From an uncultured virus (IMG/VR IMGVR_UViG_3300044731_000312) (Duplodnaviria > Heunggongvirae > Uroviricota > Caudoviricetes): 64,000 bases of DNA. Both the position numbers and the translations under genes were made by a program. Below are positions 26,101 through 63,839 of this stretch, piece after piece (position 1 is the stretch's first letter; each line of letters starts with the position of its first letter). Location of the stretch: IMG/VR virus record IMGVR_UViG_3300044731_000312. One strand, 5' to 3'. The notes below the pieces were generated by a model, which did not search any database, was not told where the DNA came from, and worked only from the letters and a program-made list of their open reading frames with translations.

Positions 26101-26969
26101 CCTACTTCGCCCGCTTTGCCTAGCAGCCCTGTAAACTCTTCTGCGCTAAATCCAGCTTCTTTGAGGTTCGGCGTAAACTCTTGGATAGCATCCAAATAGC
26201 CGCCGATATCGGTAACACCTTTTTGTGCTCCCGATGCTACCAAGTTTAGCGCATCGTTAAAGCTCAAGCCGTACTGCTTAATGAGCGGCGATAGCTTGCC
26301 CACTAACTCCGGCGTCTCTGTTCCTAACGCCTGCGCTACTTGGTTTGATCGCGCTGCCGCCTCATCTAAACTATCAAGTGGTATTGCATCTCCGAGCGTC
26401 TGACGTAGCGAACCCACGATCTTCGCAGCTTCCGCCGCGCTCTCCCCCACACCCTTCAAAAAAGCATTGTCCGCTGCCGTCTCTAACTTGCCTAAATCTT
26501 CGCCTGCTAGCCCCGTGCTAATCGATAGCTGCTTGAGCGTCTTGTCAAACTCCGCGCCCGCTGCAAATGCTTCACCAAATGCGCCCGCCACTGCTCCAAC
26601 GGTAGAGCTTAAAATCTCCATCCCGCTAGACAATGCGCCTGCTAATGGGAAAGCTGCGGCAAGGCCGTTGCTCAATCCTTCTATTGCGCCCCCAGCGTCA
26701 CCACCTTTTGCCGCTTCAAATGCGCTGGACAGTTCTTTTTTAATGTTGGCAATAACGCCTTCTGCTTTGCTACCGTCTAGCTTTATAGTCTGCTTATCAC
26801 CTAAATCTTGCAGCTCGCTTTTCGCGGCTTTAATGTCGCTGTCATCAACTTTCGGCTTAATAGTCGGATCGATGTTGTCCAGCTTTTTAGCTTCTGTTAA
26901 TACAGTACCGAGCTGCTTCTTTAGTTCGCTGGCATCTATGTCTATTTTGACGGTAACTTTTTCTGCCAT
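23181..26969 (-). CDS. Tail tape measure protein
   Basis: 1262 aa, Ala-rich helical; C-terminal GFEEGGYTG...AGVVHGQEFV. Confidence 0.9.
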   Translation of the reverse strand: MAEKVTVKIDIDASELKKQLGTVLTEAKKLDNIDPTIKPKVDDSDIKAAKSELQDLGDKQTIKLDGSKAEGVIANIKKELSSAFEAAKGGDAGGAIEGLSNGLAAAFPLAGALSSGMEILSSTVGAVAGAFGEAFAAGAEFDKTLKQLSISTGLAGEDLGKLETAADNAFLKGVGESAAEAAKIVGSLRQTLGDAIPLDSLDEAAARSNQVAQALGTETPELVGKLSPLIKQYGLSFNDALNLVASGAQKGVTDIGGYLDAIQEFTPNLKEAGFSAEEFTGLLGKAGEVGLKDFAKVGDGIKELQNRIKSGDLLTQLQGIGGETSKQLENLARQAQKGTLSGKEVLTQSIAEIDKAFKDGKISQSLRGQLLTTFGGSIAEDIGSEAYSKIFSAPIDTAAVKKAAQEAGKVIDQTIPPPDFGRIFELAKKEVGQALNEVYQKVIAPVLTPLIDGFGKLKDVFVSAFSGLGPGVDILKLYGEYLGFLAKFVVDRVVLAFKVLLTVWRVLYAPVQILISAIVKLVKWFGDLTGATEFLSKAWNYLKSLGETVFTVITNLGDAIVGLVNAVSSFDLSNIENALSAFGTLTQAKKKDADATKEQAKAQEDVNKANNGGLTPEEAAKLAEEQAAAAEKKKEQEKAYAEALKAARAELKAITAEEQKRQQIRDAQSIEDENKRAIKIIEIERDFQKKILDEQLAAIKGKGKLETTQREILNIQLKKLEQESADAIAQIRAKQRADELAKAQEQAKKVEELNAKVADQLLARLQARFAGGDNSLAAAVLNAQRSAIERGLTATVDAIIASTPEYAAAIAKINKEIEQGLLNPADYAERTNKVRAEILARLQSLPSDTKDVYALQIRGAYQQSADEIAKGTADIVAQIRQQQVKQSGEIFADSLRGIGEALRSVDFATIYGEAADKAAALNEEQEKLIENLQDGTATYQDSVDQLANLQAQQEQTASATATAISQAFQAIADQQAKAAQDGINTVNAALERRKEIAKQEIDLEKLKAAEVKALQDQGIKDKEVYEAALKAIEEKYTQDRANLKKEDEKLAQESAEVQDAALNQIAVSAGAAFASLVAGGESAGEALKKVVGSTVSALLDLYTPSIVALFSSVIPPPFGQIAGLAAVQALKALLQSALSGFEEGGYTGNGGTKQVAGVVHGQEFVMTADTTRKNRALLEHLHSGKSLESFPALQKMLADNQISTIPVTELQLMRSELSAIRQRLDSMPNGIQGNMGVDVQVGMDTYLYERDRSRMIARKLRG

Positions 26970-27406
26970 TACTTCATTTCAAGTAGGGTATTGCAATACT
27001 TCTGCACATCGGTAATTGTTACGTGATGCCAGAATCCTTCATCGTCAAACTGTGCTGCGTCCTGTTCCGATAACCTGCTCTTGTCTGCCGTCGCTTTGAT
27101 GCAATCAATACCAAGCATAAGCGCGCTCATTGTGTGCGGTAACTCCTGCATTTGCCGATGCAATGCGGCTGCTTTTATCATATTGCTCTTCGCCCATTCG
27201 GTCAGGTCTAGCTCTGTAAACGTACCGCCATTGCTGATTGCTTTGTCCACAAGTGCCGCAAACTCTGCATCTTCTGCGTACATCTTCGACACGCCCGCCA
27301 TAATGCGGTCTTTGCCGTGTTCTTCAATGTATGCGCTGATCTTGCCTTGCCATTCTTGCAAGAGCTTCGCGTTCGCTACTGATAGCGGGATAGGTTCAAA
27401 ATTCAT
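26969..27406 (-). CDS. Second (paralogous) tail assembly chaperone
   Basis: Similar to 27760..28371 (P.TM....LGIDCI.AT.D.S.LSEQ...FW..VT...V..Y). Confidence 0.7.
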   Translation of the reverse strand: MNFEPIPLSVANAKLLQEWQGKISAYIEEHGKDRIMAGVSKMYAEDAEFAALVDKAISNGGTFTELDLTEWAKSNMIKAAALHRQMQELPHTMSALMLGIDCIKATADKSRLSEQDAAQFDDEGFWHHVTITDVQKYCNTLLEMK

Positions 27407-27758
27407 TGTGTGTCCTTCGAGGTTTGTTGAGACGCTTGCCGCTGGCTTTCTCGTACATGTATGCCTGTTCGCCCATGTCTCCAGTCCACCACGGCTTCTT
27501 GTAGTTAATTGCTTTTTGGATGTTTACCAGCTTGTAGAATTCCGCATACGCCATATCCATTACTTCGTAGTAACTCAATCCCCATTCGGGAGCGTATTGC
27601 AGAGCCATTGCCATAGATGATGCGGTAGCGGGTAACGTGTCGGTGTAGTTATCGTCTATGTCCATTGTAAAGTTAGGATGCTCTTGTGAGAATCCGTACT
27701 TGTCTAACAGCTTCACTTCGTGAATTTTCCACATAGTGACACGCCAAACTTCGTACAA
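27396..27758 (-). CDS. Tail chaperone gpT-like part, likely reached by +1 frameshift
   Basis: In the +1 frame of the chaperone and open back to TTT_CGC at 27778-27783. Confidence 0.65.
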   Translation of the reverse strand: MYEVWRVTMWKIHEVKLLDKYGFSQEHPNFTMDIDDNYTDTLPATASSMAMALQYAPEWGLSYYEVMDMAYAEFYKLVNIQKAINYKKPWWTGDMGEQAYMYEKASGKRLNKPRRTHNEF

Positions 27759-28371: not shown

Positions 28372-28382
28372 TGTGTGTCCTT

Positions 28383-29064: not shown

Positions 29065-29814
29065 TCATTTCTCCATTTTAATTAGTGCTGTTAAATCGCG
29101 CACGTATGTATCGCGATAGAATGTATGCAGTCCGTGCTCTTCGTTGTTCTCTGCTAACCATCTGCCGATCAGAGTGGTGTTGCGTATGAGCTTCTTCTTG
29201 AGCACTTCACTTTCGCCGCTGTAACCATTGTGTGCGATTGTGATAGTTGTATCTACGATGCTGTAACCAGCGCCGCGGATAGTGTGTGCAATCTGCTCGT
29301 GTGCGTAACCTTCCCAGTAAAACTCTGGAGTGTTACGGTACATCCGCAGTTGTCCGATGTTAAAGTATTCGTTTTCGTTTGCTTCGCCGATCAGCTTCTT
29401 ATAGCATGATAGGGATGCTTGCCCCGCCATAAAACCACCTACGCCGCCGCCGTGCCTTTGTGTTGCCTCTGCTATGCCTTCGTGCTGTTGCTCGCATAGG
29501 TATTCGTCGCAGTCCATCCAAAATATCCATTCCTTCGTAGCCATTTGACCGCATAGATTGCGAGCTTGTGCAAAGCTGAATTTTCCCTTTTCGTACGTCC
29601 ACTCGCGCGAGCGGATCGTGTGATTTTCGTCAGTATGCTCTACCGCTTCGCTAACGTGGTGTTCGCGCCCCTGCTTATTTAGCAGGATGCAAACCTCCGC
29701 ATTCTTTGGTAGTGAACGGAGCATGCCCTGCATACTCTTGTGCATGTCATCATGCGATGCGATAACGCAAAAGCTGACGGGGAAGCTATCTAATTGTGTG
29801 TCCTGTGTGTCCAT
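29065..29814 (-). CDS. GT2 glycosyltransferase in the tail module
   Basis: FSFAQARN, WIFWMDCDE (DxD), RMYRN, GYAHEQI, HNGY. Confidence 0.85.
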   Translation of the reverse strand: MDTQDTQLDSFPVSFCVIASHDDMHKSMQGMLRSLPKNAEVCILLNKQGREHHVSEAVEHTDENHTIRSREWTYEKGKFSFAQARNLCGQMATKEWIFWMDCDEYLCEQQHEGIAEATQRHGGGVGGFMAGQASLSCYKKLIGEANENEYFNIGQLRMYRNTPEFYWEGYAHEQIAHTIRGAGYSIVDTTITIAHNGYSGESEVLKKKLIRNTTLIGRWLAENNEEHGLHTFYRDTYVRDLTALIKMEK

Positions 29815-29819
29815 GTGTC

Positions 29820-30284
29820 CTAGACTGGTCGTATAACAAAAGTGACAGTAGCAGCAACGCCCATCTGGATTTTATTGCTGCCCGTGTTGAATTCGCCTAC
29901 GTTGCCATCTACATGCATTGACGTGATAGCCGTGTAAAATCTTCCATCGTTATTGCTGCCTATTGCGTCGAGGTCATACGTCTCTAGCGCGTATTTGATA
30001 CGGCTTGCAATATCGCCCGCCCGCTCATTGGCTATGCCTAACTCGCTAGGGTCTGCTTCTATCATGGCGTTGCACATGATCTCGACCAATGCACGACCAA
30101 GCCCCAAGCTCAAGCCCGTCTCGGAGTCGGTGTCGTACTGCATCTGGCTAATGTATGGATAGCAGATAGTAGTCTTTGACTCATACGCGTCTGGTCTCCA
30201 TATACGGCGCGGCGTAAGATTGCCGTCGCTGTTAAGAGCATCAATGATTGTATCTACAATGTACTGCATCGAATTGGTCGCCAT
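29820..30284 (-). CDS. Tail terminator/completion protein (putative)
   Basis: Position. Confidence 0.55.
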   Translation of the reverse strand: MATNSMQYIVDTIIDALNSDGNLTPRRIWRPDAYESKTTICYPYISQMQYDTDSETGLSLGLGRALVEIMCNAMIEADPSELGIANERAGDIASRIKYALETYDLDAIGSNNDGRFYTAITSMHVDGNVGEFNTGSNKIQMGVAATVTFVIRPV

Positions 30285-32386: not shown

Positions 32387-33514
32387 TTAAGCTCCGTAGT
32401 ATTCCACTACAAAAACAAGACCATCGCCGCCGTTACCGCCAGCTCCTGAGTCAGCACCGTTAGTGCTTCCACCGCCACCGCCGCCCCCTGCACCTTTGCC
32501 ACCATTGGCACCATTGCCAGCAGCTATTGTGCCAGCAGTATTTCCAGCAGCACCTCCGCCGCCACCAGACCCCATTGCTGCAGTTGTTGGGTTGTTGATG
32601 TCTAGCAAGATGTTATTAGCACTGTCGCTACCTGCTGTCCCGTTGCGAGTGCCTGTAGTTGTGCCCCCTGCGGGAGCAGTACCAAGTGTGCCTGCGTCAT
32701 AAATACTACCTCCACTTCCACCGTTGCGAACGCTGTTAAATGCATCTATACCACCTCCACCTCCTCCGCCCGCACCAGCCGTAGAATTCAATCCATTACC
32801 TCCACTACCCCCGGTACCATTAGCGGTGCCACTGCCACCGGTATTACCGTTAGCACTATACGGGCCAAATGCAGGCGTATTCAAATTGCCGTTGCCCCCA
32901 TTTGTTGTGCCAGTGGTTGACGAAGTTGAACCGCTTAGGCCCCCTATACCATTGCGAGCACTGACCAAAGAATCAAAACTAGTGATTCCGCCGTTGGTCC
33001 CCGTAACGCCGCTAGTATCGTTAGTAGTTCTTGCCGCGCCACCCGGGCCCCCACTGCCTATTGTTATTGCATAACTAGATGCCGATAACGTAGCAACGCG
33101 CATAATACGATAAGCATAAGTAGCACCACTACCACCTGCGCCCGAACCCCTAATTGTTGACGCAGCCCCGCGCCTACCACTACCACCACCACCACCAGCA
33201 CCCACGCACAATACTAAAGCACCCCAAAAATTAGATGCTGTTGGTTTTGTCCATGTATCGTTGGCTGTGTATTCGCGGACGACTGGGTTTGTTCCACCTC
33301 CACCAGTAGCGGTCAGGTCAGTCTCGGTTCCTGCGTCGTTCTTAAAATATAGTTTGCCATCAGTCTTTGCGTAGACTATGCCATAGCCAGATGCAGGCGT
33401 AGCTGGTGAGCTGCCTTGTTCAGAAAGAACAGCAGATGCGCCCGCAATCAAGCTATCACTATTCGTTAGCTCTGCGAGTGCAGCCGGTGTTGTTATGGGT
33501 CTTTTATCTGCCAT
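32387..33514 (-). CDS. Glycine-rich fibre protein
   Basis: WTKP, VGAGGGGGSG, GGNGGDGLV.V.EY. Confidence 0.8.
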   Translation of the reverse strand: MADKRPITTPAALAELTNSDSLIAGASAVLSEQGSSPATPASGYGIVYAKTDGKLYFKNDAGTETDLTATGGGGTNPVVREYTANDTWTKPTASNFWGALVLCVGAGGGGGSGRRGAASTIRGSGAGGSGATYAYRIMRVATLSASSYAITIGSGGPGGAARTTNDTSGVTGTNGGITSFDSLVSARNGIGGLSGSTSSTTGTTNGGNGNLNTPAFGPYSANGNTGGSGTANGTGGSGGNGLNSTAGAGGGGGGGIDAFNSVRNGGSGGSIYDAGTLGTAPAGGTTTGTRNGTAGSDSANNILLDINNPTTAAMGSGGGGGAAGNTAGTIAAGNGANGGKGAGGGGGGGSTNGADSGAGGNGGDGLVFVVEYYGA

Positions 33515-33720
33515 TAGTTAAGCTGTGTTTCCGTGCCTGCATCGTTTTTGAAATACAGATTGCCGTCGGTCTTAACATACAACAAAGTCAGTCCAGATGC
33601 AGGCGTGCTCGGGCTGCTGCCCTGTTCTACGAGAACAATAGACGCACCGAATACCAAACTGTCAGAGCTACTAAACTCCGACAGATTGCCGCTGGTTGTT
33701 ATCGGTCGTAGGTTAGCCAT
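33514..33720 (-). CDS. 68-aa virion protein (near-identical to 518..724)
   Basis: Four substitutions versus 518..724. Confidence 0.8.
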   Translation of the reverse strand: MANLRPITTSGNLSEFSSSDSLVFGASIVLVEQGSSPSTPASGLTLLYVKTDGNLYFKNDAGTETQLN

Positions 33721-34229
33721 TAGGCAAGGGTAATAGGTTGCTGTTCTTCAAAGTTGATCTCGGTTGCTGACAGAGCGATGCCGACTTCCTGCGAAATATA
33801 GCCCGATGTGCTAGGTGCAGTTGAGACAATATCACCTGCGCTTGAACCGCTCAAATAGTAAGGAGCGCCGGGTGTCAATCCAGTAAGGCCTGTGATTGTA
33901 CCATCAAGATATACCGTGGCGTTTGCAGGGCTTGTTGTAGATGCAATAACAAAGCCGTGAGCACGGCGTCCATTGCTTGCATCTGCCTTGCGTGCCTTAA
34001 CTGTACCGCTGTCATTCCATAGGTTCACGAGATCGCCTGCACTCAAGTTCTCGCTAGTTGCCGCAACCTTTACAGTTGCACCAATCCCAGAAGGCAATAC
34101 TGAATTGTCCAGTTTGCCGCCGCCGTCAAGAGCTACAATCTTGCCCGCTTCCGTTGCGCCTGATGATGATACGGTAGCTTCGACTTCTGCGAGCTGACCG
34201 CTGTTATTTTTGATATACTTTTCTGCCAT
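33720..34229 (-). CDS. Putative capsid decoration/fibre-base protein
   Basis: Identical protein to 724..1233. Confidence 0.7.
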   Translation of the reverse strand: MAEKYIKNNSGQLAEVEATVSSSGATEAGKIVALDGGGKLDNSVLPSGIGATVKVAATSENLSAGDLVNLWNDSGTVKARKADASNGRRAHGFVIASTTSPANATVYLDGTITGLTGLTPGAPYYLSGSSAGDIVSTAPSTSGYISQEVGIALSATEINFEEQQPITLA

Positions 34230-34230
34230 G

Positions 34231-34704
34231 TTACACCGTTTGAATGATTGTGTCTATGTCGATGAGTAGTTGCGTCGCTGTTAAGGCCTTGCCTACGTGA
34301 ACGACGATAGCGCCGTTCGTTGGTACCGTCTGTGTTAGTGTTCCGTTCGTGCCCAGGTAAACCGTGCCCTTCGTCCAGTTCCAATTTGCGTCTGTCAGGA
34401 TGCCCGAAATTTTAATCGTTGCGTTCGCCCCTGAACTTGCGGCCGTGTATACGATGCCGATGACCTGTGCATTAGCAAGCGTATTGTTGCTAGCGTACAC
34501 AGCCTGACCTGAAGAGTTAGTAGTAACAGCACGGAGCGCCGACAGGTTTTCGCCAGCGACCAGTGTGAGGTCGTCAGAGATAGGCACCAAACCACCCGAT
34601 GCAACATCGAGCGTGATAGTAGACTGGTCAACGTTCAGTTTGAGGTCTTCGTCTGCAATGTTCAGACTAATCGTCGACTGGTCTACGTTTATCGTGGTGC
34701 TCAC
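34231..34704 (-). CDS. Putative capsid cement/decoration protein
   Basis: Homolog of 1235..1711. Confidence 0.7.
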   Translation of the reverse strand: MSTTINVDQSTISLNIADEDLKLNVDQSTITLDVASGGLVPISDDLTLVAGENLSALRAVTTNSSGQAVYASNNTLANAQVIGIVYTAASSGANATIKISGILTDANWNWTKGTVYLGTNGTLTQTVPTNGAIVVHVGKALTATQLLIDIDTIIQTV

Positions 34705-35045: not shown

Positions 35046-35065
35046 TGGAAACCTTTGCTGTGCTC

Positions 35066-35089
35066 ACCACGGGGCCGAAGCCCCGTAGT
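35066..35089 (-). other. GC-rich hairpin with cUUCGg tetraloop
   Basis: ACTACGGGGC-TTCG-GCCCCGTGGT. Confidence 0.75.
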
Positions 35090-35098
35090 CAGAACAGA

Positions 35099-50438: not shown

Positions 50439-50633
50439 TCAGTTTGAATGGGCTGTCTTGCTGTCGTTGATTAGGCGCTGGCGTGTTTTAGCTACAACAT
50501 AAAGCCATTCGATAACGGCATCCGAGGCTTTGCCTTCCTTGTGTGCTGCAATGAGTTCCATGACAGCGGCCGCGAATTGTGCATCGTTAAGTGTTGCGTA
50601 CTTGTAAGCCATATCTACTGTGTAGTCGTTCAT
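50439..50633 (-). CDS. First early gene of B (start MNDYT)
   Basis: Downstream of the promoter; ACACGGAG RBS. Confidence 0.6.
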   Translation of the reverse strand: MNDYTVDMAYKYATLNDAQFAAAVMELIAAHKEGKASDAVIEWLYVVAKTRQRLINDSKTAHSN

Positions 50634-57500: not shown

Positions 57501-58050
57501 CTGCAGCCTTGGCAAGAACGTTAACGTTCTCGGATACCGCAGACAATGCCTCGGGTGTGCTTGCCAGATCAGGGCCAAACTTAGACAACACAGTCTGGAA
57601 AGCCTCCAGCTGTGTTGTTGCTGATCCTCCAAACTGTTCAGCTAATCCCTTGGCACGTTCGCCCAAATCGTTGAGTCCGTCGCCAGTTACACCTGTTACA
57701 GCTGATACCGACTGCAGGGCGGTCTCGAAATTAGAACCGGCTGCTATGGCCTGTGACAGACCTTCCTGCAGCACGCCCCCGAGTTGTGCAGCAACGCCAC
57801 CGATAAGACCACCAGAAAACGCACCCTTGAAAGAATCCGACAGCGAAGACGCGGCGTTCTTACCTGTTGTCTCCGCTACGTTTTCAAGGCTTTTGAGGCT
57901 TTGTTTGGCACCGTCGGTATCGACAACAGCGTCGATGTTTAGAGCCTTGCTTATCTGATCTGCTGACGTCTTGGAATCACTAGCGGCTTTCTTCAGTGAC
58001 GATGAAAAACCGCTAGTGTCCAGTTGAAGTTCATTCTTAAAAACTGCCAT
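54514..58050 (-). CDS. Tail tape measure protein, TP901-like core
   Basis: 1178 aa; GSEAG.GLRN; C-terminus closely matches A's TMP. Confidence 0.9.
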
Positions 58051-58356: not shown

Positions 58357-58893
58357 TCAGAGTTTAGCGACGCCTCGAAACCACTTGACGGATTCGACCA
58401 CCTCCGTCAGGTCTTGGTCTTCCCAGAATTCGGAAACGGACATGAGTGTCTTTTGTTCTTCGGTCAGCTGGTTGGTGTCCATGATGACCTTCAGCACCTC
58501 AATACAGGCGTTGATGGCGTCGTCGTTGTCAAGGGGAAACTCTGTGATAGGATTGTTCAGCGCTTGCCAGATGTTCGGGAATGATTCCAGCAATTCGGAT
58601 TGTATGCGCTGTGTTACCATCGACTGCAGATCGTTGTCTGTGATGTTCGGGATAGCCTCCCGAATCTCTTTGCCAATCTGTGCAGCGTGCACGGAGTTAG
58701 CACCACCAGACAAGGTAACGATCTTGGCAGCATTGGGCGATTCCTGCAGGGCCTTCTGGAAAGCCGCGTTCTGGCCTAAACTGCGAAGCGTTGCGATGGG
58801 GTTCTCAACTGCCTTGATGATACGGCGCGAGATGATGTTCTTCAGCGGGATCTCTTTCTGTTCACCCACGAAATAGAGTTTAATCGACGGCAT
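58357..58893 (-). CDS. Tail assembly chaperone (start MPSIK)
   Basis: Between MTP and TMP; FW.D....EV similar to A's chaperone. Confidence 0.75.
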   Translation of the reverse strand: MPSIKLYFVGEQKEIPLKNIISRRIIKAVENPIATLRSLGQNAAFQKALQESPNAAKIVTLSGGANSVHAAQIGKEIREAIPNITDNDLQSMVTQRIQSELLESFPNIWQALNNPITEFPLDNDDAINACIEVLKVIMDTNQLTEEQKTLMSVSEFWEDQDLTEVVESVKWFRGVAKL

Positions 58894-58917
58894 GACAAGT
58901 CCTCTTGTTACGGCATG

Positions 58918-58963
58918 AAAAACAAAATAGGCAGGGGCCGCCATGCCGCGAACGGCCCCCACC
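58918..58963 (-). terminator. Terminator-like hairpin with loop complementary to the chaperone start region
   Basis: GGTGGGGGCCGTT-CGCGGCAT-GGCGGCCCCTGCC-TATTTTGTTTTT. Confidence 0.75.
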
Positions 58964-58979
58964 GGGTAACCTCGGAAGG

Positions 58980-59555
58980 TTACTTATAAACTACAGTTCC
59001 GTATGGAATTGTACCGAACAGTGTAACAGGTACGGCTGAAGTCATAAAGTCAGTGAAGTAGGTTGCAGCAAGCGTGATAGGGTTCTGCAGCTTGAAGCCT
59101 TCGAAAGACAACGTTACTCGGTTGTATGTTTCACCAGCCTGCGTCCATCCGCCAGATTCGTTGTTCAGGCGCTGTGGGAAAACGCCTACCTTACGAACGG
59201 CTGTGTTTTGCTGGTTTCCACCACCAGCAAGACCGCCCTTGACTGCACAGATTAGCTTCTGGTTCTGAGCAGAGCCTGTTTCGTTTGTGCCGTTCTCGAG
59301 AAGCAAGTCCTCGATAGCGCCAGCGCCTGTGTTGGTTGCTGTCTCGATAAACGTCTGCAGCGCCTGCGTGTCTTCGACGTGCTCGATAGAAATCGAGTAA
59401 GCACCAGAAGCAGCGTCACGTGTTACATCTGTTGAGATGATGTTATCATTGAGTTTGTAGAGGTATGTCGAACCGACGCCAATAGTGCCGGTATCTTCGA
59501 CAGTCCATGCGCCGAAGGTATTACCACCGGCGACGACCCGTGTTGCGAGTGCCAT
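58980..59555 (-). CDS. Major tail protein
   Basis: Position; homolog of 28458..29063. Confidence 0.7.
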   Translation of the reverse strand: MALATRVVAGGNTFGAWTVEDTGTIGVGSTYLYKLNDNIISTDVTRDAASGAYSISIEHVEDTQALQTFIETATNTGAGAIEDLLLENGTNETGSAQNQKLICAVKGGLAGGGNQQNTAVRKVGVFPQRLNNESGGWTQAGETYNRVTLSFEGFKLQNPITLAATYFTDFMTSAVPVTLFGTIPYGTVVYK

Positions 59556-59556
59556 G

Positions 59557-60309
59557 TTATTTGTCCTTTGTTACATAATACATAAATGATCCTGAGTCAC
59601 GGTGTATCATTTGTGTCCAGTATACTAACTGGTCATCATCTGTACAGTCCGCAATCTCACGTGCGAGCCCTCTCACGTTACGCCTCACCTTGGCCATCAT
59701 CGAGTCGGCGTCGACTTCATAGCCTACGTGATGCACTAACAGTGAACAGGTCTCAAGTGTTAGCCCCTGCTGTTCTATCGACCATGTGATCTGTTCGTGT
59801 GCAGCACCCTTGAAGGCGAATGCTTTGTTGTTGCGAAACACCCTTGTCTGTGGATGATGGTATCGCATAACGTTGCTGTTGCCTTCGTGCTTCGGTTGTA
59901 CTCCAACACATCCGCACACAAGCCCGCCAACACCGGCAGGGTATATCGTCAGGTCGTCAAACCAACTATGCTGATGGGTTAGCAGACGGTCGTCGGCGTC
60001 TATCCACATTACCCACCCACGAGAACAGAGACCAATGCAAAGGTTGCGAAGGTTGGCAAAGTGTAGATCTTGCCATTGCGTTTCGTAGTAACGAACAACG
60101 CTACCATTGTTTAGCGTTATTTTCTTACGTTCTACAACCTCTGAATTGTCGCCCTGTTCATTCCAGAGCACGACCACCTCGCAGCCACTCGGTAGCGTTG
60201 AGATCATCTGCATGACGTGGTGTGCTTCGCTCTTGTGTGCTATGCAGGCGAAACTTACGTCGACGTGTTTAGGCTCTGAGCTTTGGTTCGTTGCCGACAT
60301 ATAGAACAA
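59557..60309 (-). CDS. GT2 glycosyltransferase in the tail module
   Basis: FANLRN, WIDADD, RVFRN, GAAHEQI, HHVGY. Confidence 0.85.
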   Translation of the reverse strand: MFYMSATNQSSEPKHVDVSFACIAHKSEAHHVMQMISTLPSGCEVVVLWNEQGDNSEVVERKKITLNNGSVVRYYETQWQDLHFANLRNLCIGLCSRGWVMWIDADDRLLTHQHSWFDDLTIYPAGVGGLVCGCVGVQPKHEGNSNVMRYHHPQTRVFRNNKAFAFKGAAHEQITWSIEQQGLTLETCSLLVHHVGYEVDADSMMAKVRRNVRGLAREIADCTDDDQLVYWTQMIHRDSGSFMYYVTKDK

Positions 60310-62756: not shown

Positions 62757-63823
62757 CTCACTTCTCCGTCAATAATCATCTTGTTGTAAACTGTGAAACG
62801 TCCCGAGTCTTGCAGGTCGACAAGAGCGAACCCGTGATTCCAGCCGTTACGAGCCGCGTAGAAAGGATTCAAATCGCACAGGCACCCAACAGACCACCCT
62901 GCTATGAAAGACCCGTCTAAGGGCCTGCGAATCATGTCCGTGGACGTTCTATGCACGTGACCCACTAGGATATTGTCGAGAGCCTTCATTCGGTAGTTTC
63001 GCCCTGGTGTTACACCACCACCACCAAACCACTCATGGCCGTGATCTATCCACAGCTGGCCAGCCTGCATCTTGCCACGTTTTGATACCCACTCGATACC
63101 GATCTCACGTAGTTTCAGAAACTCCTCGAGGTAAACGGTGCCGATTAGTTCCTTCGCCTTACGTGCAAGGTAGCGCTGGTATCTTTCTTCGTGGTTGCCC
63201 TCACGGTAGACGATGCGTACCTTATCACCAAAGAAAGCCCGCAGGTGTTTCAGCATGGCGATAGCAACATCCAATTCCCACTTCCAAGAACGTTTCCCTT
63301 CGACCTTCTCGTGGTCTGACAGGTTATAAACGTCGAGCATATCGCCGTTTAATACCAGCGTGTCTATGCCCTCATCACGGAGTGTTTCTATGGCTGTCCA
63401 GTATGCCCCGTAGAAATTGCCGGCCGAGTCCTTGCGTAGGTCATGGAATGGCCAGTGTGCATCCGAGATGATGCCTATCTTACCAGGTCTAATTTCGCAT
63501 ACTTCGTCATCACGTAATTCGCCTGCTATGGCATCGTCGAAGGGAACAGCCCCGTATTCGGTAGGTGGTGCTTCGGCTATTCGTAGTTTCTTAAGTGCTT
63601 CGGCCTCACGTTCATGGACGCTGTTTAGTGCTGCCTTTGCCTTCGCAATCTTCGTTTTTATTACTTCGGGATTCTCAGCAGCGAAGGCGTGGGCGTTCTT
63701 GATTTCAGCGCCGCGTATTATGCCACCCTTTATCTGGGATTTCTTCATACGAGCCGCACGGTAATCTTCGATGATTTCCCGCACGGCATCGTACTCTACA
63801 TCGGACAGGCGTAAACGCGGCAT
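62753..63823 (-). CDS. Calcineurin-like metallophosphoesterase
   Basis: SDAH, NGDMLD, GNHE, HGH, GHVH. Confidence 0.9.
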   Translation of the reverse strand: MPRLRLSDVEYDAVREIIEDYRAARMKKSQIKGGIIRGAEIKNAHAFAAENPEVIKTKIAKAKAALNSVHEREAEALKKLRIAEAPPTEYGAVPFDDAIAGELRDDEVCEIRPGKIGIISDAHWPFHDLRKDSAGNFYGAYWTAIETLRDEGIDTLVLNGDMLDVYNLSDHEKVEGKRSWKWELDVAIAMLKHLRAFFGDKVRIVYREGNHEERYQRYLARKAKELIGTVYLEEFLKLREIGIEWVSKRGKMQAGQLWIDHGHEWFGGGGVTPGRNYRMKALDNILVGHVHRTSTDMIRRPLDGSFIAGWSVGCLCDLNPFYAARNGWNHGFALVDLQDSGRFTVYNKMIIDGEVR

Positions 63824-63839
63824 GTCTGGCCCTGTCTAT

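Follow-up and report, generated by a model that had tools for sequence, protein, structure and literature searches.

A candidate antisense seed in the hairpin behind the tail tube gene of siphophage-like genomes

The hairpin that follows the major tail (tube) gene of phage B, one of two phages in the 64,000-nt stretch of uncultured-virus DNA analysed here (the window), carries in its loop a word complementary to the start regions of neighbouring genes. A seed of this kind is present in 7 of 10 related lineages, in seven different sequences, five of them in the loop and two in the 5' arm. We suggest, with a probability of about 0.6, that it equips the 3' end of the tube mRNA with an antisense seed that represses neighbouring non-virion genes. 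Loops and starts change together from lineage to lineage, so that the helper genes are probably turned down during the mass production of the tube. The pairing itself is very probably real and selected; that it reaches distant genes seems likely, and that it is repressive nearly as likely.

Genomes, relatives and genes around the hairpin

Two related siphophage-like genomes, each of about 33 kb, lie end to end in the window, with their genes on the minus strand. Positions 1-32344 (phage A) are identical to record G012, and the rest (phage B) is about 90% like G002 and G016. The junction (1-32344/32345-64000) falls within a small gene common to both, and positions 1-1388 and 32997-34384 are 91% alike; the joining of A and B in one sequence is probably an assembly chimera. 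The tube proteins of the two phages share 23% identity. Scans for relatives gave at least 89 loci, many of them redundant, and 15 whole records were used. The relatives were sorted by spacer type into ten lineages (A-F, H and N1-N3), with the exclusion of loci L022, L046, L063, L064 and L088, whose sequence stops before or within the spacer. Scans with P0062, P0030 and P0193 revealed no further lineage among the matches listed. In the comparison with cultured phages, the tube protein had no match and the capsid matches were at about 25%. The single prophage-like match sits in a MAG labelled Bradyrhizobiaceae, which was not taken as the host. No member of the FinO/ProQ and Hfq families was found among the 65 window proteins scanned.

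The gene order of phage B begins with the phosphoesterase (PF00149), a CHAP protein, the head-tail adaptor, the neck, and genes of 157 and 79 aa, and continues with a glycosyltransferase-like (GT) gene, a 191-aa gene, an 86-nt spacer, a 178-aa gene, an 89-aa frame and the tape measure. The labels of tail tube and chaperone given in the preliminary description to the genes on both sides of the spacer hold. The 191-aa ORF (58980..59555, minus strand) is the major tail (tube) protein by gene order and fold model (pLDDT 88.3), the top Foldseek rows being mostly tail tubes, Hcp and tail or baseplate proteins, with a best E of 0.003 and none at or below 0.001. The 178-aa protein (58357..58893, minus strand) has no profile match, and we assign it as a G/GT-type tail assembly chaperone (G) from where it lies and from a TTT CGN site that relatives share. 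As in lambda G/GT, its place is between the tube gene and the tape-measure gene, and a conserved candidate shift leads into an overlapping frame; the lambda shift is -1, while the candidate shift here is +1, and UUU_Ynn is described as +1 prone in the available text of PMC5009743. The candidate site is TTT CGA at 58380-58375 (minus strand), leading into the T frame that ends at 58050, and its phage A counterpart (TTT CGN, tail chaperone G/GT) is at 27783-27778 (minus strand). In 14 of 17 records (window A and G012 being the same sequence), a TTT CGN gives access to 109-128 open codons in the +1 frame. TTT makes up only 42% of the Phe codons, yet it is the one used at this site. Lineages F and H have TTT TGC at the shift position, and in C and D the second chaperone frame also has its own ATG.

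In phage A and in lineages F and H, a second chaperone paralogue, which has diverged, separates T from the tape-measure gene (26969-27406, minus strand, in A). Directly before the tube gene, all 17 records have a GT-like gene of 247-285 aa belonging to one family (59557-60300 in B and 29065-29814 in A, both on the minus strand), with weak glycosyltransferase matches below the cut-off; its position suggests virion glycosylation. In L048 and L057, a second GT-like gene is inserted between the hairpin and the chaperone, and the C-rich loop of their hairpins could pair with G-rich SDs, a possible second seed. Record G006 (L048/L051) has an element of about 130 nt, its arms G-rich and C-rich, in two inverted copies. 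They lie about 1650 and 16460 nt past the tube stop, and one of them is inserted before the tape-measure gene.

The hairpin and its targets in phages B and A

The spacer of phage B opens with a small hairpin, TAACCT-TCCG-AGGTTA (58967..58982, minus strand), located over the tube stop (TAA, 58982-58980) as had been described; 85% of its cells are paired, and relatives keep it in different sequences. The main GC-rich hairpin follows (58930..58963, minus strand), terminator-like or a 3'-end barrier, with 13 pairs, 9 of them G-C; all 11 pairs counted are invariant in 10 B-type sequences. The antisense seed GCGGCAUG occupies the 3' side of its loop (58942..58949, minus strand; apex GCGGCATG) and is also invariant in the 10 sequences. 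For a transcript that stops at the U-tract, its mean unpaired probability is predicted as 0.85 and the cost of opening it as 1.5 kcal/mol. This U-rich tail (58918..58929, minus strand; 7 U in the first 9 nt) comes at once after the GC-rich stem, which gives the element of B the form of an intrinsic terminator. Across 10 records, at least 6 U were found in 4 and only 2-5 U in 6. Only A, B and F have a good U-tract; in the other lineages the hairpin may therefore serve as a 3' barrier instead of terminating transcription.

Promoter-like sites are no more frequent than chance would give (12 against 15.5 expected), and Rfam gave no match at the gathering score in the 64 kb window. In one of two small-share metatranscriptomes, one contig stops at 58920, in the U-tract; it is a single assembled contig and carries no weight. 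A conserved short-loop hairpin at 35046-35098 (minus strand), after the 147-aa gene behind the capsid gene in most genomes listed, is the ordinary counterpart of the post-tube hairpin.

The complementarity of the apex to a word at 58917-58910 and again at 58894-58887, the latter with the chaperone ATG, was found exactly as the preliminary description had given it. The proximal copy of this target word (CATGCCGT; 58910..58917, minus strand) is a pseudoknot partner and a possible decoy. In the 10 B-type sequences, the helix between loop and proximal copy is paired in 100% of the cells; 6 pairs stay the same, 2 show a one-sided change of wobble type and none a two-sided one, and the sequence flanking the copy varies while the copy stays paired. 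By inspection, the arrangement fits an H-type pseudoknot, with a loop 1 of 3-4 nt that tolerates insertions, 8 bp, and a 12-nt linker over 11-13 bp. The small SD hairpin ACAAG-AGGA-CTTGT, to which the preliminary description had given a part, is present in this genome (58895..58908, minus strand), but only 65-73% of its cells are paired in the 10 B-type sequences, which leaves the role without support and rules it out as a conserved part. We also discarded a mini-ORF at the proximal copy and a tube-chaperone fusion by read-through or frameshift, since frames and spacings (43-110 nt, and 822 nt in one case) differ among relatives. Antitermination by pairing was ruled out by reasoning, as the partner is not yet transcribed when the polymerase is at the U-tract.

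Over the chaperone start codon (ATG, 58893-58891), the target CATGCCGT (58887..58894, minus strand) has the same 8 nt in 23 of the 23 listed B-type loci. Among 6 representatives, the Pro codon 2 within it never changes, in contrast to the 5 other conserved Pro codons, each of which varies, and just 8 of 34 fourfold sites are invariant. The best partner of the B loop on the whole coding strand of the 64 kb is the start of the calcineurin-like phosphoesterase (PF00149), 4.8 kb upstream, with a perfect 9-bp target (63816..63824, minus strand) that is unchanged in the 10 loci out of 10 reaching that far, down to 65% protein identity. The target over the GT-like start (60300) is weak (60294..60301, minus strand; 7 bp, 2 of them G-U, -6.0 kcal/mol); 20 of the 23 loci reach it, with TCG as codon 2 in 18 and TTG in 2, both of which pair.

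CATGCCGY occurs in the window about as often as expected, with 7 matches on both strands, 6.44 expected and 46 of 100 shuffles reaching 7. On the coding strand it matches three times, at the proximal copy, at the chaperone start and at the start of the phosphoesterase (63824-63817). The count being at chance, a single genome proves nothing, and the unusual thing is the placement. Sites as strong as the seed targets are also present inside genes, and the helices are short (7-10 bp). Several SD/AUG targets are partly folded, with predicted unpaired probabilities of 0.27-0.66. Early genes, for example those at window positions 50633, 49364 and 48443 (minus strand), share a ACACGGAG-like leader tag, which the tube-hairpin seed does not match.

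The orthologous hairpin of phage A (28390..28434, minus strand) has the seed UGUGUCC at 28414-28408. Its targets on the minus strand are in the chaperone SD (28374..28380; 23 of 23 listed loci), 1 kb further downstream, at the paralogue's SD (27409..27415; 22 of 22 loci reaching it), and in three tandem copies at the GT start, 1.36 kb upstream (29797..29820), the first of them in 22 of 22 loci that extend there. These SD and GT-start sites are 5 of the 7 coding-strand copies of the word in genome A. In 12 A-type spacers, 8 of the 17 pairs of the main stem changed on both sides, while the seed helix stays paired throughout (100%), one wobble included. With a linker of 9 nt to span 17 bp, the pseudoknot of A would be a tight fit by rough estimate.

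Seeds across ten lineages

The preliminary description argued for selection on the pairing and left it to relatives to bear the complementarity out. A start of the chaperone family is matched by the loop in 5 of 10 lineages, each time with another sequence, and by the arm in 2 more, so that the argument gains from the comparison, even though the related lineages N1-N3 have no seed match and carry short-loop hairpins (3-6 nt loops). In B, the loop seed GCGGCAUG corresponds to two copies of CAUGCCGU, and in E the seed UUUGACAGG corresponds to a proximal copy and a second copy at the start. The related lineages A, F and H show a concerted change of seed and target: UGUGUCC/GGACACA in A, CUUGUCC/GGACAAG (twice) in F and CCUGCCC/GGGCAGG in H. 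This change sits at the GT and paralogue starts in the three lineages, to which A and F add the first chaperone; the H loop seed UUUCCUGCCC matches GGGCAGGGAA at the paralogue, with no match at the first chaperone. The arm seed of C is GUGGCUCCG, with CGGAGCCAC as its target, and that of D is CGCAUCCGGU, whose target ACCGGAUGCG lies 822 nt off across an inserted gene and ranks first in the locus. The C seed matches the GT start with 11 bp. No GT-start match with the assigned seed was found in D, E and the second C-type record (G005); apparent GT matches of lineage D sit at an internal Met rather than the called start and were dropped.

Within B and A, only pair-preserving changes were seen, the seed helices having 2 (B) and 1 (A) one-sided changes and none broken. 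Two-sided changes of seed pairs are absent within a lineage, and compensation occurs only between lineages that cannot be aligned. The loop seeds of A, B, F and H are predicted to be accessible (unpaired 0.65-0.97), while the arm seeds of C and D lie within local stems that take 8.5-15 kcal/mol to open; the latter two were picked by their chaperone match, which is circular at the chaperone. Seeds pair over the SD (-12 to -2) or the AUG itself. In the whole-hairpin scan, target ranks went from 2 to more than 100, which is uninformative because GC-rich arms dominate. The per-genome count at a 3% threshold is weak in places, with 0 in G014 though its words are those of A.

To compare own and foreign seeds, the start windows (-18 to +8) of each lineage were scored against all ten seeds, and the seeds were permuted. 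Since GT had been noticed post hoc, the test took in every gene family found in 5 or more of the 10 lineages, 27 in number, with loop-only seeds throughout and negatives included. The own seed beats the foreign ones at two of the 27 families, namely GT and the chaperone family (p 0.00025 and 0.0006, respectively), each of which passes 0.05/27. The phosphoesterase family (p 0.039) is driven by B and fails the correction over 27; the other 24 families have p of at least 0.10, with 0.48 for the tape-measure start. At the tube start itself, none of the 10 lineages has its own seed as the best one (p 0.96). Other runs of the test gave the same pattern. The permutation handles general SD likeness, not kinship, and the starts come from a simple custom gene caller, some of them being uncertain; as the lineages are related, independence is overstated and the p-values are optimistic.

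Possible mechanism, rival readings and known systems

The proposed antisense seed could work as follows. The late transcript would be ended or trimmed at the strong post-tube hairpin, giving an abundant and stable tube message whose hairpin presents a 7-10 nt seed complementary to the initiation regions of non-virion neighbours. These are the chaperone G and its paralogue downstream, GT upstream and, in B, probably the phosphoesterase, as the observed complementarity and covariation show. From the position of the helices and the known action of sRNAs, covering the SD or AUG would block 30S binding. The adjacent target could be reached in cis as an H-type pseudoknot, while targets 0.8-4.8 kb off would need long-range fold-back or trans pairing between transcripts, two routes that sequence alone does not separate. 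One operon would thereby yield tube protein in quantity but little chaperone and enzyme, the repression rising as tube mRNA accumulates; the neighbours on the tube message, presumably required at low levels, would be held down. Because B transcripts ended at the U-tract stop before the proximal copy, their loop would be kept free; more speculatively, the copy might capture the loop on read-through, leaving a free seed only on U-tract-ended transcripts. A bolder version, which we regard as rather doubtful, makes the tube mRNA a trans-acting multi-target riboregulator, whose lineage-private anti-RBS loop tunes assembly stoichiometry and whose proximal copy disarms read-through transcripts. If true, it would be a termination-sensing feedback made of RNA alone, in which only terminated tube messages repress.

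The decoy-versus-start switch of the preliminary description would be purely local, the loop forming a pseudoknot with the decoy or the start codon on read-through mRNA and the distant matches being by-products. The geometry in B is classical H-type, and proximal copies occur in B (where the copy is conserved), E and F, with lower-stem partners in C and D. However, such a switch leaves unexplained the matches 1.3 kb and 4.8 kb upstream, 1 kb downstream and 0.8 kb across the insert. The strongest family signal is that of the GT start, 1.3 kb upstream; the H loop matches distant starts only, neither A nor H has a decoy, and the SD hairpin fails conservation. The element is wider than a local switch, and we consider this reading unlikely. 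Distance from the tube stop bears on translational coupling, in which the seed closes the chaperone start until a ribosome terminating at the stop melts it. The seed begins 5-11 nt past the stop in C and D, within reach of the terminating ribosome, so coupling may operate there as a variant. In the C record G004, a nested fold pairs seed and SD with a probability of 0.99 (0.46 in G005), and blocking from the stop to +12 raises the accessibility of the SD region from 0.27 to 0.47. In A, B, E, F and H, however, the seed is 23-50 nt from the stop, past the terminating ribosome, and the upstream targets are left unexplained, which makes coupling an improbable account of the whole family.

The pairing might instead protect or activate its targets, shielding initiation regions from endonucleases, as the hbs mRNA is guarded from RNase Y by 5'-3' UTR pairing (available text of PMC7821165), or opening inhibitory folds, for which the partly folded state of several targets (unpaired 0.27-0.66) would speak. 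A helix over the SD (-12 to -2) or the AUG would nevertheless exclude the 30S subunit, and the start of the most abundant gene is itself unmatched; we find a positive effect rather unlikely. It is very improbable that the element has no function, the start words being shared by duplication or as a protein operator and the loop being an accidental inverted copy. Word counts in the window are indeed at chance, the SD of the paralogue could be inherited by duplication, and three lineages do without the element. But one position has been filled independently by seven different sequences, a word common to non-homologous genes changes with the loop, silent sites are conserved at the B target, and a protein operator requires no complementary copy; the own-versus-foreign seed test largely refutes this reading.

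How many tube subunits and few chaperones and enzymes are made from one late transcript is poorly explained, and a seed retargeted in each lineage would be a concrete answer; the 30:1 ratio of lambda G to GT is known to be crucial (available text of PMC5009743). The seed/RBS pairs would also offer a compact orthogonal design, and a search rule follows from them, namely hairpins with long loops past major structural genes. In the literature searched, which covered few subscription papers, no description of the tube-hairpin seed was found, and the accessible parts of reviews on phage sRNAs (PMC12197685) and 3'-derived sRNAs (PMC9438474) contain no such element.

Comparison with known systems places the element between several of them. 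Intrinsic terminators or protective hairpins, GC-rich and ordinarily short-looped, follow major structural genes of phages, whereas the tube hairpin has a loop of 8-12 nt with a targeting seed, and a U-tract in some lineages. In the Min Jou pairing of MS2, RNA of a major structural gene reportedly masks the start of a low-copy gene over a long range. The masking stretch of MS2 is coding and melted by ribosomes, while the one found here is non-coding and mostly beyond their reach. OppZ and CarZ of Vibrio cholerae are 3'UTR-derived autoregulatory sRNAs, in which, as here, a short sequence past a stop codon pairs with an initiation region in the same operon, leading to discoordinate expression; RNase E cuts OppZ off the operon 3' end, and OppZ needs Hfq and has a 5' seed (accessible text of PMC7398697). 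The tube element shares with OppZ a seed complementary to an initiation region of its own operon, but it is known here as sequence only, is operon-internal, with the chaperone and tape-measure genes following on the same strand 86 nt on, has its seed mostly in a loop and has targets on both sides. In icaR of Staphylococcus aureus, a 3'UTR anti-RBS motif, the generic UCCCC, pairs over a long range with the RBS and blocks initiation, silencing its own gene (available text of the review PMC7821165), whereas the tube hairpin leaves the start of its own gene unmatched and is complementary to several neighbours, with a word peculiar to each lineage. RNAIII of S. aureus is an mRNA whose 3' domain hairpins, such as hairpin 13, bind the RBS of several targets; it acts globally on unlinked genes with longer duplexes (accessible text of PMC2837412), in contrast with a 7-10 nt seed within one phage late operon. 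By analogy, OppZ, icaR and RNAIII may serve as precedents for repression by such pairing, although the tube element belongs to none of the OppZ/CarZ, icaR and RNAIII kinds. The tube-hairpin seed appears to be a form of antisense RBS control with lineage-private seeds aimed at the neighbours.
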